Source: Candidatus Poribacteria bacterium (GTDB lineage: Bacteria; Poribacteria; WGA-4E; PCPOR2b). Taken from it: a stretch of 64,000 bases of DNA. This document shows, one piece after another, positions 27,997 through 55,771 of the stretch (position 1 is its first letter; each line of letters starts with the position of its first letter). The notes beneath the pieces were generated by a model, which made no database searches, was not told the DNA's origin, and saw only the letters and a program-made list of their open reading frames with translations. The position numbers and the translations under genes are program-made. The DNA is taken from the NCBI GenBank assembly GCA_965116925.1, contig OZ220744.1, positions 1,440,001-1,504,000 on the forward strand, read 5' to 3'.

Positions 27997-29037
27997 ATGT
28001 CGAAAAACAGAGTGGTTTTATTGGGAACGATTCTATTAGCGGCTGTGTTGATAACAACCGTACCCCATGCCGACGGACAATGGAATGTTTTACAACAGAT
28101 GGACATGGAGGATGTTCGGGACTATAATGGGGTTGCTTTTATCAGTCCAAACGAAGGTTGGGTTGTCGGTATTTCAGCATTGGATATGGACAGTCCGGGA
28201 TATATTGGCCACACCAGAGATGGAGGCAAAACGTGGGAGAAAGCGGAAGAGCCCATCAATCAGATGCTCAATGACATTTTCTTCTTCGATAAAAAAAATG
28301 GATGGGCAGTGGGCCAAGAGGGTATGATTGTTGGAACAACGGACGGCGGAAAGCGCTGGGATATCCAAACGAGCAAAGTTGGAAACTGGCTTAAAGGTGT
28401 CCACTTCGTTAGCCCCAAAATCGGCTATGCAGTTGGGATGAATGACACAATTGTTCAGACCACCAACGGAGGAAAACAGTGGAGTGTGCTTCGTGGTGGG
28501 GAGGTTGCCGCTGCTGTGGGTGACGAAGAAACGGTCGTGCTTAATGCTGTCCAGTTTATCGATGAATCTACCGGTTGGGTGACCGGGGTTAGAATTAGTC
28601 CTGAAACTGGGGGACAAGATGGTTTAGTTCAGAAAACCACCGATGGCGGAAAAACGTGGGTGGATCAACCCACAAATATCCCGGATATTCTCGAGGACAT
28701 TTGCTTCGTGGATGCCAATAACGGGTGGGCGGTTGGAGAAAACGGTATCGTCTTACACACCACAAATGGTGGCGATAGTTGGGGGCTTCAAACAACCGGG
28801 ACGGAAGAAAAGCTATTGAGCGTCAGCTTTGCCGACAGTGCTGTCGGCTGGGCAGCTGGCGGCGGGTTGGGTGTCAGTATTATCATCCACACAACTGACG
28901 GCGGAGCAACTTGGGTCACACAAACTATTGATGACCCCATCATCAGTAAGGTGCCTGCAAACGGTATTTTTCTGCTAGATGCAAACAACGTTTGGGTTAT
29001 CGGCAACAATGGTTTCGTTGTGTCATCTTCAAAGTAG
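27997..29037 (+). CDS. Secreted YCF48-like/BNR-repeat beta-propeller
   Basis: Signal peptide; repeated GWAVG..G.I.HTTDGG.TW units. Confidence 0.9.
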   Translation: MSKNRVVLLGTILLAAVLITTVPHADGQWNVLQQMDMEDVRDYNGVAFISPNEGWVVGISALDMDSPGYIGHTRDGGKTWEKAEEPINQMLNDIFFFDKKNGWAVGQEGMIVGTTDGGKRWDIQTSKVGNWLKGVHFVSPKIGYAVGMNDTIVQTTNGGKQWSVLRGGEVAAAVGDEETVVLNAVQFIDESTGWVTGVRISPETGGQDGLVQKTTDGGKTWVDQPTNIPDILEDICFVDANNGWAVGENGIVLHTTNGGDSWGLQTTGTEEKLLSVSFADSAVGWAAGGGLGVSIIIHTTDGGATWVTQTIDDPIISKVPANGIFLLDANNVWVIGNNGFVVSSSK

Positions 29038-29101
29038 AATAGATCTATTTGAACACAATCCTAAAGTTAGGAGAAACTATTTTCAAAAATTGAGGTGATA
29101 G

Positions 29102-30268
29102 ATGAATTTTGCAGATCGAATGGACCGTTTGGGAACGGAATCTGCTTTCGAGGTACTTGCCAAAGCCAAAGGACTAGAAGCGCAGGGTAAAGACATCGTC
29201 CATCTCGAAATTGGTCAGCCCGATTTCATAACCCCTGCGAATATTAGCGAGGCGGCTTTTAAGGCAATGAAGGAGGGTCACACCGGATATGGACCCTCCG
29301 CAGGTTTATTGGAGTTTCGTGAAGTTATCGCTGAACATATTTCGGAAACGCGGGGTGTAGAGATTCATCCGGATGAAGTCACTGTTACGCCTGGTGCCAA
29401 ACCTATTATCTTTTTTACCATCTTGGCACTTGTTAATGAAGGAGATGAAGTTATCTATCCTAACCCCGGATTCCCGATCTATGAATCTGTCATTGATTTT
29501 ATTGACGGGAAAGCAGTCTCCCTTCCGCTGCGTGAGGAGGTTGGTTTTCGCTTCCGGATTGAGGATCTTGAGGCTTCCATCTCGGATCGGACGAAGCTGT
29601 TGATTATCAACTCACCACAGAACCCGACAGGCGGCACGTTGGCAAAAAGTGACTTGGAAGCAATCGCTGAACTAGCGATTAAGCACAATTTCTATGTGTT
29701 GACAGACGAGGTCTACTCGCGAATCCTTTATGAGGGTGTCCATGATAGCCTCATCAGTCTGCCGGGCATGAAGGAGCGAACGATTCTGCTTGAGGGGCAC
29801 TCCAAAACCTATGCTATGACCGGCTGGCGGCTGGGTTATGGGATAGCTCCTACGGAACTAGCGGATAAAATCACACAGTTGACTATAAACTCTAACTCGT
29901 GCACCGCGACTTTCACGCAATTTGCAGGGATTGAGGCGCTGAAGGGACCGCAAGATTTTGTCCACGAAATGGTTACTGAGTTCAGAAAACGGCGTGACGC
30001 GATTGTTGACGGTCTCAATGCAATTGAGGGTGTGAGCTGCATTAAACCCCTTGGCGCATTCTACGTATTCCCGAATGTTTCAGAACTGCCTCTTTCTTGC
30101 CAAGACCTATCGGACTACCTGCTTGAAGACGCAGGGGTTGCAGTTCTGCCCGGCACCGCCTTTGGTAAATTTGGCGACGGCTACTTGAGATTGTCGTATG
30201 CAAACTCGCTGGAAAATATTCAGGAAGCCTTAGCCCGGATGGATTCAGCAATTTCACGGATTCGGTAG
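29102..30268 (+). CDS. Class I PLP aminotransferase (aspartate aminotransferase-like)
   Basis: NSPQNPTG, DEVY, SKTYAMTGWRLG. Confidence 0.9.
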   Translation: MNFADRMDRLGTESAFEVLAKAKGLEAQGKDIVHLEIGQPDFITPANISEAAFKAMKEGHTGYGPSAGLLEFREVIAEHISETRGVEIHPDEVTVTPGAKPIIFFTILALVNEGDEVIYPNPGFPIYESVIDFIDGKAVSLPLREEVGFRFRIEDLEASISDRTKLLIINSPQNPTGGTLAKSDLEAIAELAIKHNFYVLTDEVYSRILYEGVHDSLISLPGMKERTILLEGHSKTYAMTGWRLGYGIAPTELADKITQLTINSNSCTATFTQFAGIEALKGPQDFVHEMVTEFRKRRDAIVDGLNAIEGVSCIKPLGAFYVFPNVSELPLSCQDLSDYLLEDAGVAVLPGTAFGKFGDGYLRLSYANSLENIQEALARMDSAISRIR

Positions 30269-31183
30269 ATGTCCAACAAAGCAACCGCTCGTGTTCCAGC
30301 GAGCACTACAAACTTAGGCCCGGGTTTTGATGTCCTTGGACTTGCCCTCCAACTCTATAGCACGATTTCGCTTGAAGAAATTGACGAGGGAATCGAGATT
30401 GAGGTCACCGGCATCGATGTAGATAAGCTCTCCAACGATGAGAGCAATATTGCTTACCGAGCCGCAAGTCTGGTTTTCGACAAGTGTAGGTATAAGCCGA
30501 AAGGGCTGCGATTGGTTCTAACAAATGGCATTCCCGCAATTCGGGGATTGGGTGGTAGCGGCACAGCAATACTCGGTGGGTTGTTGACAGCAAATGCCTT
30601 ATGCAATAGCCCTTTTTCCCGCGCTGAATTACTCGATTTTGCAACGGAGTTTGAAGGGCATCCGGATAATGTTGCTGCATCACTGCTAGGTGGCTTGGTT
30701 ATATCTATGATGCAGGGGAGTCGTGTACATTCAATCCAATTGGACTGTGGTTTAGATCTGCGGGTTGTTGTGGCAATCCCCGACTTTTCGTTGTCAACCA
30801 AAGCAGCTCGCAGTGTTTTACCTCAAACAGTCGATTTCGCTGATGCCATCCACAATGTGAGCCGCTCCTCGATGTTAGTCGCAGCCATTGCAACAGGCAA
30901 ACTCGAAATGTTATCGCTTGCGATGGCGGATCGACTCCATCAACCGTACCGAACCGCTCTCATCCCCGGATTTGACGATGTGGCTGCATCCGCTATGGCT
31001 GCAGGCGCGTTAAGTGTGGCTCTGAGTGGTGCAGGTCCCAGCATTGCAGCCTACTGCACAACATCAGCAGATGAAATCGGTTCACAGATGAGCCAAGCCT
31101 TCAAGCGAAATCAAATTGCTTGCGACATTAAGGTTCTACCCATCGATTCCATCGGGGCAACTGTCCAGATGAATGGAATCTAA
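30269..31183 (+). CDS. thrB: Homoserine kinase
   Basis: VPASTTNLGPGFD, EGHPDNV, DRLHQPYR, SGAGPS. Confidence 0.95.
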   Translation: MSNKATARVPASTTNLGPGFDVLGLALQLYSTISLEEIDEGIEIEVTGIDVDKLSNDESNIAYRAASLVFDKCRYKPKGLRLVLTNGIPAIRGLGGSGTAILGGLLTANALCNSPFSRAELLDFATEFEGHPDNVAASLLGGLVISMMQGSRVHSIQLDCGLDLRVVVAIPDFSLSTKAARSVLPQTVDFADAIHNVSRSSMLVAAIATGKLEMLSLAMADRLHQPYRTALIPGFDDVAASAMAAGALSVALSGAGPSIAAYCTTSADEIGSQMSQAFKRNQIACDIKVLPIDSIGATVQMNGI

Positions 31184-49985: not shown

Positions 49986-51122
49986 TCAACAAGGACCGGA
50001 CGGCGAACCGCCTCTTACGTCCTCTCCTTCAAGGGTTGATGCCCCAACCCTATAGATGTTAATTGCGGCGTTACGGTCACGGTCATGGATTGTGCCACAA
50101 TCGTCGCAACGCCAGTTTCTATCACGCAGATTCAACGTTTCATTGATAGCAGCGCAAACTGAACAGGTCTTACTAGAAGGATACCACTTATGAATGAACA
50201 CGATTTTGACACCCTTTTTAGCTGCAAGGTATTTCAACTTTTTAACGAAATCGGCAAAGCCGAGGTCACTGACTTTGCGTCCCCAAAGTGATTTCATGCC
50301 TTTAAGATTCAAATCCTCAAGCCGTATCTCGTCGTATGCGTCAGTCAGTTGGTGTGCAAGTTTCCAGTGGAAGTCCTCTCGTTGCCGTTCAATCTTACGG
50401 TGCTTGCGTGCCAAGTCAAGCCGTGTGCGTTCCCGATTCTTTGACCGCTTCTTAGTTCGTGAATGTGCTCGACTTGCACGTTTGATAGCGTTGAGACTCC
50501 GCTTAAAAAACTGAGGTGATTCTATATCATGTCCATTATGACCGGTGAGATACCTTTTGAGACCAAAATCAAAGCCTGCGATTTTACCCGTCATGACTCG
50601 ATTGGGGTCAGGTTCTACATAGTCCGTTAAGATACAGATATAGACATCGCCGATACTATCCCGTTTAATCGTGCAACGTTTCGGGTTGCCCAGAATATCA
50701 CGGGACTTGAAATAGCAATAAATACGCTTTCCTATCTTGATACGATTACCCGGTAGAAGTTTCCAACCGGCTTGTAGTAAAGTGAATGACTTATACTTAC
50801 GACGGGGTTTGAAACGCGGTCTTCCCCATTTCTTACCACTAGCACGGGCTTCAAACATTGCTTTGTAGCCTTTGTCAATTCGTGCTACTACGTCTTGAAC
50901 GGCTTGGCTCGGTAATTGATTCCAATGAGCAAACTTGGGCAACCGTTTGAGTTTAGAGATATGGTTAATCAACCGAAACCTGCTGATATATTTACCGTAG
51001 CGGGTATAGTAGCGACGTTGAAGGGCTACGCAATGATTCCATACATGAGCGTGTCCGTCTATGGTCTTGTGCAACTCACGATTGCCGTGATTAGAATACA
51101 TTTTGAACTTGTAGGTTTTCAT
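49986..51122 (-). CDS. tnpB: RNA-guided endonuclease TnpB
   Basis: RuvC GFDFG, LEDL, DRDRNAA; zinc ribbon CSVC...CDDC. Confidence 0.95.
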   Translation of the reverse strand: MKTYKFKMYSNHGNRELHKTIDGHAHVWNHCVALQRRYYTRYGKYISRFRLINHISKLKRLPKFAHWNQLPSQAVQDVVARIDKGYKAMFEARASGKKWGRPRFKPRRKYKSFTLLQAGWKLLPGNRIKIGKRIYCYFKSRDILGNPKRCTIKRDSIGDVYICILTDYVEPDPNRVMTGKIAGFDFGLKRYLTGHNGHDIESPQFFKRSLNAIKRASRAHSRTKKRSKNRERTRLDLARKHRKIERQREDFHWKLAHQLTDAYDEIRLEDLNLKGMKSLWGRKVSDLGFADFVKKLKYLAAKKGVKIVFIHKWYPSSKTCSVCAAINETLNLRDRNWRCDDCGTIHDRDRNAAINIYRVGASTLEGEDVRGGSPSGPC

Positions 51123-51550: not shown

Positions 51551-52798
51551 ATGCGTTATTCAGCCGAACAACAGGTAACAGAAGGAACAGATCACAGCTT
51601 TGACGCCAACGTTTATACCCGCTTAGGTGTCAAACCGTTCATCAATGCCAACCTCCCGTTTACGTTTTTGAGCGCGACGGTGGTGTGGCCAGAGGTGCGC
51701 CGGGCAATTGATGAAGCAGCGCATTATATGGTTGATGTGGTCGAATTGCAAAGGGCTGTGGGCAGACGGCTTGCGGAGATTTCGGGGGCAGAATCCGGCC
51801 TGGTCTCCTCCGGTGCTGCTGGATCTATGGCGTTGGCAACAGCAGCGTGCATCGCAGGCACGGATCCAGAGAAGATTTGGCAATTGCCCGATACCACTGG
51901 ACTCAAGGATCAGGTAATCATGTGGGGTGGGCGTAATATCTTCGACAGTGCGCTGCGACTGGTAGGAGGAAAACCGGTGGTGGTTAGGTCGCTGGACGCG
52001 TTGCGTCATTCCATTAACGATAAGACCGCCATGCTTTGCACGGGATACTCTGCTGATCCAGATCCGGTCGATCCACCACCGCTAGCAGAGATGGTGTCGA
52101 TTTGTAAGGCTGCGGATATTCCTGTATTTGTAGACGCAGCCGGCGGCATTCCACCCATTGACAATATCCGGCGGTATGCCGGTATGGGTGTAGATCTATA
52201 TGGGTTCAGTGGCGGCAAAGGATTACGGGGACCGCAAGCTAGTGGGCTATTGTTTGGACAACGGGACTTGATTGAAGCGGCACTTGCCAATGCCACGCCA
52301 GTTGAAGGTGCGGTATGCCGCGCAATGAAGGTCGGAAAGGAAGAGATTATCGGTTGTATGGCAGCTCTTGAAAAATGGTTGACTGTTGACCTTGAGGCAT
52401 TGTATCACGAACAGACGGAGACGTTGAAGATAATCGCCGGATTTCTAGAATCTGTATCCGGTGTTGAAACTAAGATTGAGCTCCGCAACGGCAGTAACCG
52501 CTTCATGCAGCTGGTTGTGGATTGGGATGTAGAGGTTTTTGGGCTTACTGCAGATGAGTGTGGACGCGAGTTGCGAGAAGGCGATCCGCCTATATCGGTG
52601 CTGTGTAATTACAATCCCTATGTGACGCGGGTACGCGAACTCTTTCCACCGGCTCCGCCTGATGACAAATCGGCCAAGCGTCAAAGTACCTCATTGACAG
52701 TGTTCTCACTCAGCCTTCAGCCCGGCGAAGAGCAGATTGTTGGCACCCGACTTCGCGATGTATTGATGGCAGCCCTTAATGGGACTTCATCACATTAG
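51551..52798 (+). CDS. SelA-like/DgaE-family PLP enzyme
   Basis: LGVKPFINA, VDAAG, FSGGKGLRGPQ, MKVGKEEI. Confidence 0.85.
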   Translation: MRYSAEQQVTEGTDHSFDANVYTRLGVKPFINANLPFTFLSATVVWPEVRRAIDEAAHYMVDVVELQRAVGRRLAEISGAESGLVSSGAAGSMALATAACIAGTDPEKIWQLPDTTGLKDQVIMWGGRNIFDSALRLVGGKPVVVRSLDALRHSINDKTAMLCTGYSADPDPVDPPPLAEMVSICKAADIPVFVDAAGGIPPIDNIRRYAGMGVDLYGFSGGKGLRGPQASGLLFGQRDLIEAALANATPVEGAVCRAMKVGKEEIIGCMAALEKWLTVDLEALYHEQTETLKIIAGFLESVSGVETKIELRNGSNRFMQLVVDWDVEVFGLTADECGRELREGDPPISVLCNYNPYVTRVRELFPPAPPDDKSAKRQSTSLTVFSLSLQPGEEQIVGTRLRDVLMAALNGTSSH

Positions 52799-52850: not shown

Positions 52851-55604
52851 CTAACGACGCCGAATCGTGAGATTCAAGGGCAAAAATAGCAGAACTGCAC
52901 AGAATGCGAGCATCCATTGCCACTCTTGGACGAGTGGTGCAAAACCGAATATCTGTTGTGTTGTTGGTAGATAGACGAAAGATAGATGCAGCACAATGCA
53001 AGCCAAGATAGTGAAACATAGGGGAAGATTTGCCTTTATTCTTTGGAAAACAGATTCCCAAAAGAAGCGATGGCACTGGAAATTTGAAATCAACAACCCT
53101 AAAATCAATGTCGTACATGCTGCCGTTTGCGCCGCGGCATGAGGATTCTGCTGGGTTGCATCTGCACTCACAGCTGTAAGAATAAAGCTAAAAATAGTCA
53201 TTGATGCAATGACAAGGCTGCGTAGCAGCATATCGTAGAAATCGGCGCGCGCTAGGAAGGGAGGAATCTCTTTGGGTTTGCTATATCTGATATCACCACG
53301 GACGCGATCATATCCGAGACTTATCAGCGGGATCAGACTTACGAGTAGATGGGCCCAAAACAGTTGAAGCAGGGTCAACGGCATGGGTAAATCACGTAGC
53401 TTAGGAAAAAAGAAACCGATATACGGCAGCGCGTATCCAACGATGAGCGTGATAACTTGTGCAAGACTGCAGGAGAGCAGCCAGCGCATAGAACTCCTTA
53501 AGTTGATATAAGATTCACGGACTTGACGCATGAGATCTGTGATAACAGCAAAACCGTCTTTAAGGATCACACACCCTGCGCGGTGTTGAACAATATGAGA
53601 TGAGCGTGCAGCGGCAGCGAAACTGACATCTGCCATTCGCATCGCCCGCAAATCGATCGGTAATTTTCCCCAAAATCCAACAGAATAACCGAGGCGTTTC
53701 AAATGTTGTACCAAATTCTGTTTTTGTTCGGCGGAAGGACGGCAATATACAAGTAAACGATTTACAATTGATTCATAGTGCTCATCACTGAACTCAGCTA
53801 GGTCTTCTTGCGTAACAACTCCATGTTTATCCTGAACAATGGTGAGTTCTTTGGCAATATCGAGAGCGGCGTTTCTGTCTCTATCTGTTATTGTGATAAT
53901 TTTAAGTCCTGCATCAAGACTAGATTCGATAATCTCCTTTGAATCAGGATACTCTAGCTCCATAAAAGTAATGAAGCCTAAAAAAGTCATGTTGTGCTGT
54001 GTTTCTTCCAGTGGAGGCGGAGTGTTTAGGTTTCGATAAGCGACAGCAAAAGCCTGAGTTTTACTGTTTGATAGGTATCCGATTGCCTGATGTATCAACT
54101 GCTTCTGATCGAAGCTCATGTAATTAGCGTTTCCATCAAGTTGAATGCGATGACAAGTTTGCAGGATTGCCTCTGCCTTCCCAAACATTAGCTTTAAGAA
54201 TTTTCCATCTTGAAGTGCAAAAACGAGCGTTTTATATGGGCGTTCTGATGTCTGAATCTGTTCATCAATCTTAGTGAAAGTCGCATTGTAACGTTCCAAG
54301 TCAAATCCAATTCTTTCGGCAATTTGGTTTAGCGTAGTGCTGATGCTTACTTCCGCTACGGTCGAAGTTTCGTCCATATTACTCCTGTCTCTATCCGCGG
54401 CACAGCGACTCGCGAGCAGAATCAACAGTGGGAATTCGCGTGGCACGTCTGAATCTGGCAACGCCATTGAAATTGTATCTTCGCCACCTTCATCCGATAG
54501 ATGTTGATCCCGGGATTTCAACCAAGCTTCCCACGTCTCCTGATCGACGAGATTGTCATCAACAAAAACGTGCGAAGCAGTCATCTCTCCCGTCATAAAA
54601 TTGCCGACTTCATCGACACAGACTGCCGTAAGTTTGCTCAATCTTTCCAGATTGACAAGATTACGAATTGCGATGCCCTTCTGTAAGAGTGTATAAGCGT
54701 GTTGGGTCAGGATAGCTCGACTCGTTGAGACAATCCCTTCTGGAATAGCAGCGACAACAAAACCGAAACCAAGAAACAGGAGTTCACTCCAATGGGCACT
54801 TTTATCTTGAAACAGAAACGCTAGGGCGATCGCTACTACTGCCAATATACCCCCGCCAATTCGGAAATAATCGTAGAAGAAGCCCATCTGTACTTCCGCT
54901 TCGGCATCTAGGTCCACCATCGCTGGCGTCCGCTTGTCGGATTTGCTTATCTGCATCTGATCGCCGGTCTCAACAACAATTGCTCTGGCTTCTCCTTCAA
55001 GAACATAGGTTCCTCCAAAGATCATGTTACTTTGCTTGTCGGGTGGCAAGTTCGGAGTAGAGATATCTTCATCGGTTTTTTGCGTGTTCGTTGTTGTTCC
55101 AAACACCGGTGCCTCATCGACAACTAGGGCATCAGCCTCAACAATGCGAGCATCAGCAGGGACAGAATCTCCTTCCTTCAGGAGTAATAGATCCCCGGGG
55201 ACAATCGCTGTAGGGGATAGTTTGATAATCCGCTCACCTCGAATAACGGATATACTGACCTCTAAATGGGTTTTAATCGATTGAAGCTGCGAATGCGTCC
55301 GTCCAGCCTGAATGAATCTCCAGAGGACATGAAAACAGAGAATGGCTGAAAACACTAAGATCTCGTGAATAGTACGTTGGAGATAGAAAAGGAGGCAGAT
55401 GACAATAAACAGGAGAATAACTGTTAAATTGGCAAATTGTTTCAGTAAGAGGGCAAGAAATGAACGTTCATAGGTTTGCAGAATTTCGTTGTTCCCATAT
55501 TTGCTACGTTGGGAAGTGGCTTCCTCACTACTCAACCCATGATTGAGGTCTGTTTTGAATTCATGTAGAAGATGTGGAATTTTTTGGGAGTACCAATTTG
55601 ACAT
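52851..55604 (-). CDS. P-IIA-type ATPase-like membrane protein with degenerate catalytic motifs
   Basis: GLSSEEA...YGNN, VPGD, VPADAR, IPEG, MPLTLLQL, full TM layout; DKTGT reads DEVGN, TGES and GDGVND absent. Confidence 0.85.
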   Translation of the reverse strand: MSNWYSQKIPHLLHEFKTDLNHGLSSEEATSQRSKYGNNEILQTYERSFLALLLKQFANLTVILLFIVICLLFYLQRTIHEILVFSAILCFHVLWRFIQAGRTHSQLQSIKTHLEVSISVIRGERIIKLSPTAIVPGDLLLLKEGDSVPADARIVEADALVVDEAPVFGTTTNTQKTDEDISTPNLPPDKQSNMIFGGTYVLEGEARAIVVETGDQMQISKSDKRTPAMVDLDAEAEVQMGFFYDYFRIGGGILAVVAIALAFLFQDKSAHWSELLFLGFGFVVAAIPEGIVSTSRAILTQHAYTLLQKGIAIRNLVNLERLSKLTAVCVDEVGNFMTGEMTASHVFVDDNLVDQETWEAWLKSRDQHLSDEGGEDTISMALPDSDVPREFPLLILLASRCAADRDRSNMDETSTVAEVSISTTLNQIAERIGFDLERYNATFTKIDEQIQTSERPYKTLVFALQDGKFLKLMFGKAEAILQTCHRIQLDGNANYMSFDQKQLIHQAIGYLSNSKTQAFAVAYRNLNTPPPLEETQHNMTFLGFITFMELEYPDSKEIIESSLDAGLKIITITDRDRNAALDIAKELTIVQDKHGVVTQEDLAEFSDEHYESIVNRLLVYCRPSAEQKQNLVQHLKRLGYSVGFWGKLPIDLRAMRMADVSFAAAARSSHIVQHRAGCVILKDGFAVITDLMRQVRESYINLRSSMRWLLSCSLAQVITLIVGYALPYIGFFFPKLRDLPMPLTLLQLFWAHLLVSLIPLISLGYDRVRGDIRYSKPKEIPPFLARADFYDMLLRSLVIASMTIFSFILTAVSADATQQNPHAAAQTAACTTLILGLLISNFQCHRFFWESVFQRIKANLPLCFTILACIVLHLSFVYLPTTQQIFGFAPLVQEWQWMLAFCAVLLFLPLNLTIRRR

Positions 55605-55743
55605 GGTTCAAAATTCTTGTCTGAAAACGTAAGAAAGTATGAGAAATAAAATAGTTGAGTCAAATAGGATCGGTCCGATAAGATCTGCCGTGTTCTAAAG
55701 AGCGGAGAATATATTTTACCACGTAATCATACGTCTGAAAACA

Positions 55744-55771
55744 AAAAAGCCTCGCCTAATGACGAGGCTTT
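55744..55771 (-). terminator. Terminator after rplU-rpmA
   Basis: AAAGCCTCG...CGAGGCTTT with A-run (T-run on minus). Confidence 0.85.

Follow-up and report, generated by a model that had tools for sequence, protein, structure and literature searches.

P-type ATPases are defined by a phosphoenzyme cycle, and motifs of the DKTGT, TGES and GDGxND type are essential for ATP binding, phosphorylation, dephosphorylation and cation binding. Catalytically degenerate members are already known. The human disease protein TMEM94/ERMA (PDB 9jjk), of about 1350 aa, is a stand-alone P-type fold with 10 TM helices that lacks TGES and GDGVND, and it is described as having a degenerate DKTGT (DKQGI), an occluded N pocket, few acidic residues in its TM helices and a disputed function (PMC12134183, PMC13322241). 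Under the name TMEM94 it is reported as rigid across six near-identical structures, with no ATPase activity, no Mg2+ binding, micromolar binding of AMPPCP and a buried lipid (PMC12134183); under the name ERMA, ATP-dependent Mg2+ uptake that needs D427 is reported (PMC13322241). Whether a P-type ATPase without its motifs can transport is an open dispute for this protein. Two further precedents are more remote. The P4-ATPase-like module of alveolate guanylyl cyclases, represented by P4GC-beta of Cryptosporidium, is reported to have an eroded DKTGT kept by selection (PMC13466520), and in PcrP (PA2803), a non-catalytic HAD protein, a dead HAD-fold site is said to be reused for protein binding (PMC12632274).

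Here we describe a family found across Candidatus Poribacteria, starting from one gene in a 64,000-nt stretch of DNA (the window) from a genome that is 99% complete and in one contig. The encoded protein, P0001, is like the P2A Ca2+/Mn2+-ATPases (LMCA1, SPCA1, SERCA) in its domain order and 10 TM helices but, unlike them, has lost the catalytic and ion-binding motifs. By analogy, the closest counterpart of the family would be TMEM94/ERMA, which differs from P0001 in its greater length and in its retained Asp-Lys, with a DKQGI loop and TM4 PILP reported (PMC13322241) where P0001 has DEVGN and IPEG. The P4GC-beta module is described as flippase-derived, eukaryotic and fused to a cyclase (PMC13466520), whereas P0001 is P2A-derived and unfused; PcrP is described as small and soluble, without a membrane, A or N domain (PMC12632274). 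The Poribacteria family thus offers an independent and compact bacterial case for the TMEM94/ERMA dispute. It also offers a natural series of a canonical paralog, a form with the ATP pocket only and a fully dead form, and this series, together with the compact size, makes the question directly testable.

Fold and motifs of P0001

The P0001 gene is a single stop-free ORF on the minus strand (Table 1), and the plus-strand reading of the same interval contains many stops. P0001 scores above the Pfam cut-offs for PF00122 (E1-E2_ATPase), PF00689 (Cation_ATPase_C) and PF00690 (Cation_ATPase_N) and matches TIGR01494 at 98 bits (cut-off 62); it falls far under the cut-off for all 14 other P-type models listed, every P2 equivalog included. 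These scores put the resemblance to P-type ATPases far beyond chance. The best sequence match among P2A pumps is at E 1e-51, and a profile search reaches E 1e-104. An AF2 model of P0001 alone, built from a family alignment of 71 rows, has a complete P2A-ATPase fold (pLDDT 85.3, pTM 0.80) that includes the superfamily's A, P (HAD) and N domains and Pro-broken TM4, and the best solved relatives are Listeria LMCA1 (9euq/6zhf) and human SPCA1 (8iww). Judged by sequence and modelled fold, P0001 is a member of the P-type superfamily by descent, derived from P2A pumps and with 10 TM helices, where the assignment to P2A is by similarity because our tree has no P2B-D or eukaryotic rows. The original prediction, that 917 codons without stop or frameshift preserve the domain order and TM layout, agrees with the intact frame and with the full fold of the model. 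P2 and P3 pump structures match the model at VIA Z 29-32, and TMEM94 at VIA Z 21.7 (rank 13, 15% identity); nor is TMEM94 among the best 60 PDB matches of either family profile. Since true P2 pumps are structurally closer to P0001 than TMEM94 is, we infer that the likeness of TMEM94 to the family reflects convergent loss, probably with no closer kinship.

Motif positions in P0001 come from an alignment with canonical P2A pumps. Residue roles are assigned as in SERCA, and some of them are stated in PMC10654040 and PMC13322241. Each motif substitution listed in the original prediction is present in the alignment, but the list understated what is left: DEVGN keeps Gly334 besides Asp331, and Thr573, Lys628 and Asp651 are kept too, giving four retained HAD-type site residues (D331, T573, K628, D651). 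VPGD, VPAD and IPEG are still present, and the PEG Glu alone is left of the P2A Ca2+ ligands.

Table 1. Features in the window (positions count from its first nucleotide; res., residues of P0001).
Feature	Position	Strand	Remark
Pseudo-P2A ATPase gene (P0001), 917 aa	52851..55604	-	A, P, N domains and 10 TM helices
A-domain TGES to FGTT, res. 168-171	55092..55103	-	Alignment; Glu in 0/112 homologs
TM4 PEG, res. 288-290	54735..54743	-	Pro invariant, Glu unconserved in family
Phosphorylation motif DKTGT to DEVGN, res. 331-335	54600..54614	-	Alignment
N-domain KGAPE to FGKAE, res. 474-478	54171..54185	-	K/R in 38/41 deep relatives
Hinge DPPR to ELEY, res. 549-552	53949..53960	-	Alignment
TGD to TDR, res. 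573-575	53880..53888	-	MITGD to TITDR spans 571-575
GDGVND to GKLPID, res. 646-651	53652..53669	-	Last Asp in 33/34 representatives
TM5 ion ligands lost, CNxGE to CSLAQ, res. 712-716	53457..53471	-	Alignment
TM6 ion ligands lost, NLVTD to HLLVS, res. 752-756	53337..53351	-	Alignment
Sigma70-like promoter match upstream of pseudo-ATPase	55636..55663	-	Consensus only; 2 found, 0.8 expected
Terminator-like hairpin after rpmA	55746..55771	-	Separates gene from rng-rplU-rpmA
Ycf48-like, aminotransferase, thrB genes	27997..31183	+	Lie next to the gene, upstream, in most other genera; 24 kb from it here

Across the family, none of 162 proteins has DKTG[TS], TGE[SAP] or GDGxND, so that no ortholog with canonical motifs was found; DKTG is kept in eight. 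The TGES Glu is missing from all 112 homologs and present in 2 of 13 intermediate members, the TM5 Glu and the TM6 Asp each occur in 0 of 73 family rows, and the KGAP K/R is kept in 2 of 19 order-level representatives. The commonest family-wide substitution is TGD Gly to Asp or Glu (31/34 representatives, 0/54 canonical pumps). Position 331 is D in 93, N in 18 and S in one of the 112 homologs; of 49 order-level orthologs, 19 have N, S or Q there, one of these being among the 20 from the same genus. While the TM4 Pro (P288) is present in all 112 homologs, E289 is Glu in 77, and the residue after the Pro can be E, D, Y, H, Q, N, S or M across the family. Asp331 and the PEG Glu289 of P0001 are accordingly not family-wide features. 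By sequence and modelling, the whole pump fold is kept, but the residues needed to bind ATP and cations, to phosphorylate the Asp and to dephosphorylate it are missing.

The four HAD-type residues that P0001 retains, together with the reported abolition of uptake by ERMA D427N (PMC13322241), would suit a non-canonical ATP-driven pump working through Asp331, as claimed for ERMA. We regard such a pump as very improbable: besides the variation at position 331 within the order, just 12 of 41 deep-clade proteins have D there, the TGD Gly is D or E, the N-pocket is lost in the window's order, and the activity of ERMA is itself disputed (PMC12134183). Unless claims of the ERMA type generalise, established chemistry excludes ion pumping, and even if they do, the Asp is unconserved.

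Distribution, selection and gene order in Poribacteria

A homolog search returned 112 proteins at 31-100% identity, followed by canonical pumps at 24-27%, and the named members among the 112 are Candidatus Poribacteria; overall, family and canonical pumps share 22-30% identity. When the phylum was searched, the window's order gave matches at E <1e-140 in 156 of its 159 genomes; in two others the gene is present as fragments at contig ends, and G071 (81% complete) gave no match. Degenerate orthologs, some of them partial, also occur in 14 of 14 genomes from other orders of the class and in two of three from other classes, the third (G003, 450 contigs) showing a canonical pump only. The total is 174 of 176 Poribacteria genomes. 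The motif readings cover 49 order-level loci and 16 outer genomes, whose orthologs share the losses. In our main tree (LG+C20, motif columns removed), with 51 rows, 30 of the family and 21 canonical, from 114 aligned, a branch with SH-aLRT 100 separates the family from the canonical rows. The family arises within the P2A pumps of bacteria and archaea, and inside it a deep clade is sister to all other members; a FastTree tree of 93 rows agrees, with long branches as a caveat. An insensitive scan for two patterns outside Poribacteria, across 185,579 species genomes, gave six loci: two titled Poribacteria, one uncultured bacterium, two canonical pumps and one partial (L139). In the ESM Atlas we found canonical pump clusters only, with no degenerate family members. 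That the family is nearly universal in this phylum, whose members are major sponge symbionts, suggests a membrane function that is core yet unannotated. The database label on members, 'Ca2+-transporting ATPase', is probably wrong.

We found no description of a degenerate Poribacteria family in the literature searched, although a genome-survey supplement could list it, and the review PMC10654040 makes no mention of Poribacteria, TMEM94 or 'degenerate'. The family can therefore still be called undescribed, as originally suggested; the suggestion made no mention of the degenerate eukaryotic precedent of TMEM94.

The gene is under purifying selection and is no pseudogene. Within the genus its median dN/dS is 0.115 (Nei-Gojobori, pairs with dS below 1.5, pseudo-ATPase gene only; 187 of 190 pairs usable), and in four other groups it is 0.09, 0.11, 0.14 and 0.21 (7/21, 2/10, 6/6 and 1/1 pairs usable, respectively). 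Every domain is constrained (dN/dS about 0.1), P and TM5-6 usually most and TM1-2 often least. The gene also evolves much faster than its neighbours, its protein having 32-35% identity where ThrB has 62-64% and the aminotransferase 79-82%. It is covered end to end by an RNA-library contig (52352-55725; two libraries, one study), and contigs of that study break at the terminator-like hairpin after rpmA, although such contigs prove neither transcription nor strand; in runs X5 and X6 of a second study, the gene is barely covered. A functionless relic or a sequence error might account for the fast evolution and for the ortholog of G009 (64% complete), whose reading frame is broken in two where the P-site motif lies (L045 / L053). 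Frames are intact in 150 of 150 matches listed from the phylum search, and, with constraint in every domain and a contig spanning the gene, the relic reading is largely refuted and exceedingly unlikely. We conclude that the family is, very probably, a selected non-canonical protein without a Post-Albers cycle, in line with the main inference of the original prediction. Because catalysis and the ion site are lost yet the gene is kept under selection, the pump shape would now serve another job.

In most of the class, the pseudo-ATPase gene is preceded by a Ycf48-like gene, an aminotransferase gene and thrB, the last of these in 24 of 34 loci. In the window's genus it follows rplU-rpmA in 19 of 20 loci, the twentieth lying at a contig end. 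Reversing 31.2-55.7 kb of the window would restore both thrB-ATPase and rpmA-obg, the latter presumably the ancestral order, and we therefore propose a probable genus-specific inversion of about 24 kb (window 31200-55700), after which thrB precedes obg and rpmA precedes the pseudo-ATPase. We considered thrB as a dedicated neighbour and rejected it, reading the upstream linkage as ancestral gene order; thrB is absent upstream in the window's genus, in family f5, in genus g25 and in the deep clade. Deep-clade loci have no neighbour common to most of them, and since no neighbour is conserved phylum-wide, there is no dedicated partner gene. The Ycf48-like repeat protein (window 27997-29037, plus strand) is secreted-looking and has several paralogs in the genome; in family f5 a Ycf48-like gene lies directly upstream of the pseudo-ATPase. 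A DgaE/SelA-like PLP enzyme gene (window 51551-52798, plus strand) is convergent with the pseudo-ATPase gene in 20 of 20 loci of the genus. The window also has an IS200/IS605-family TnpB gene (49986-51122, minus strand), with related copies in RNA-library contigs.

Staged loss in the deep clade

A search from the deepest ortholog found 40 close relatives and then canonical pumps (80/80 with DKTGT), so that the deep-clade set comprises 41 proteins, with a median pairwise identity of 50%. These keep the N-domain pocket: the GDPTE Glu is present in 41/41, the aromatic residue (Phe/Tyr) in 40/41, the RK motif in 41/41 and 39/41, and the KGA Lys/Arg in 38/41, and in the hinge the DPPR Asp is present in 40/41. 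Phosphoryl chemistry is lost (TGES Glu 0/40, phospho-Asp 12/41, second DKTGT Thr 0/41, GDG Asp 8/41), as is the ion site (PEG Glu 0/40, TM5 Glu 0/41, TM6 Asp 0/41), with a hydrophobic P-M/A/I-G in TM4. Two ATP-contacting arginines are mostly gone (8/41 and 0/41), D or E takes the place of the TGD Gly in 35/41, and productive ATP binding across N and P therefore seems unlikely even in the deep clade. Intermediate families keep the pocket in part (aromatic 10/13, RK 11/13 and 10/13, KGA Lys 0/13), and in the window's order it is lost (1-6 of 19 representatives). The locus L080 (G001) has a deep ortholog followed by a histidine kinase gene and a PhoU-like gene (identified by eye), an arrangement seen in three near-identical loci only.

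We propose that, in the ancestor of the phylum, the protein would first have lost its ion site and its phosphoryl chemistry and retained the N-domain nucleotide pocket, giving a pseudokinase-like state in which nucleotide was bound and not hydrolysed; the pocket would then have decayed in the class and order of the window. Predicted conformations may weakly support this order of events. The AF2 model of a deep member best fits closed E1-AMPPCP states (TM 0.82-0.83) and that of P0001 best fits nucleotide-free E1 (TM 0.76-0.81, versus 0.65-0.69), with E2P-like states fitting both models poorly (about 0.55-0.6), these fits covering P0001 and the one deep member.

Candidate functions

Our tentative preference, which we hold with slightly less than even confidence, is that the family is a phylum-wide pseudoenzyme from a P2A Ca2+-ATPase, acting as a non-cycling binding platform (a scaffold or adaptor) that was ancestrally nucleotide-binding. 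P0001 would neither cycle nor pump; it would adopt an E1-like shape in the inner membrane, and its head in the cytoplasm, together with the cytoplasmic side of TM5-TM10, would bind a partner encoded elsewhere. Nucleotide could switch the protein in deep lineages, and the platform would be constitutive in the window's order. We favour a platform because conservation fell in the transport and catalytic parts (family/canonical: TM1-2 0.32/0.54, TM3-4 0.34/0.54, P 0.45/0.69, TM5-6 0.43/0.57) and is hardly below that of canonical pumps in A, N and TM7-10, and because family-biased residues lie in the cytoplasmic parts (D349, D574, W708, D791, R795, Q843, R846, P909). There is also precedent, since TMEM94 is reported as rigid and without ATPase activity (PMC12134183) and a dead HAD-fold protein is reported to bind partners (PMC12632274). 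The 'scaffold' reading was reached partly by elimination, and several observations count against it: the family evolves fast, its invariant residues are mostly structural and common to canonical pumps, ERMA is reported as a Mg2+ pump despite what looks like similar motif loss (PMC13322241), and the low dN/dS of TM5-6 (0.03-0.13 within lineages) might point to a function inside the membrane. Compared with canonical pumps, the cytoplasmic face has only a modest excess of basic residues. We also considered, and rejected, a basic pocket beneath TM8 like that of TMEM94, its basic residues being largely common to canonical P2A pumps.

The low TM5-6 dN/dS would also suit an ATP-independent lipid-binding or lipid-moving protein (scramblase- or chaperone-like), whose de-charged TM core would hold a phospholipid as in TMEM94, where a PA-shaped lipid lies between M3, M4, M5 and M7 (PMC12134183). 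Acidic residues per sequence are 0.00 in TM5, 0.09 in TM6 and 0.03 in TM8, against 0.96, 1.00 and 0.31 in canonical pumps, and the hydrophobic TM4 of the deep clade fits the same idea. We nonetheless think a lipid role rather unlikely, as conservation is lowest in TM1-4, the position following the TM4 Pro is free to vary and no lipid genes are conserved near the loci examined. Another scenario that we rate as unlikely combines a nucleotide-gated, non-hydrolysing form in deep lineages with a later nucleotide-free device that moves or presents lipid or Mg2+, an independent bacterial counterpart of TMEM94. If that were true, living intermediates would show the passage from a primary pump to a facilitator or receptor.

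The Mg2+ transporters of these genomes bear on a further possibility, a passive conduit for Mg2+ or another cation that makes CorA and MgtE dispensable. The window's own genome has no CorA and only a remnant of MgtE, and 70 of 176 genomes, many of them incomplete, have neither CorA above the cut-off nor an MgtE frame of at least 330 aa; CorA is above the cut-off in 67 of 176 only, and 41 have no match to either. ERMA is reported to bind its ion through the TM4 backbone and a TM5 Gln (PMC13322241), and Q716, a putative counterpart of that residue, is Gln in 105 of 112 homologs. We consider a conduit quite improbable: there is no phylum-wide ion ligand (the Q716 position is T, M, I or L elsewhere), the gene is kept equally in genomes having CorA or MgtE, and the own genome has two CNNM/CorB genes. 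CorA/MgtE loss in many genomes does keep a Mg2+ role alive. A more general role in filling a pathway hole was rejected, with YidC, TrkH, a Ca2+ exchanger and CNNM present in the own genome (Nramp is marginal) and CorA/MgtE loss patchy in the phylum. The MgtE 3' remnant of the own genome lies behind an aroC-like gene (L119:1429-1620; G000:C1:585182-585280), and many other Poribacteria have MgtE remnants that are short or contain stops.

The family might instead supply a regulatory subunit of an active P-type pump, and this may have been its original role, since the two genomes of the deepest family, G001 and G002, have a degenerate ortholog and a canonical P2A pump together. We judge it highly unlikely. 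The matches listed for a canonical P2A query include no canonical P2A pump from any of the 173 genomes of the class; such pumps were found in G001-G003 only, outside it, and a single MgtA-like pump in G029 (L055, G029:C108) is the sole intact non-P1B pump seen in the class. In the window's own genome the only intact P-type ATPase is of the P1B-like heavy-metal type, with no other P2 gene. Of the four roles suggested originally, the pump partner is thus disfavoured by the lack of a P2A pump found in the class and the passive conduit by the lack of conserved ion ligands; scaffold and sensor remain. Three proteins of 1600-1700 aa (P0137, P0154, P0178) have an N-terminal P1B-like ATPase, with no clear CPC, fused to a canonical P2A ATPase.
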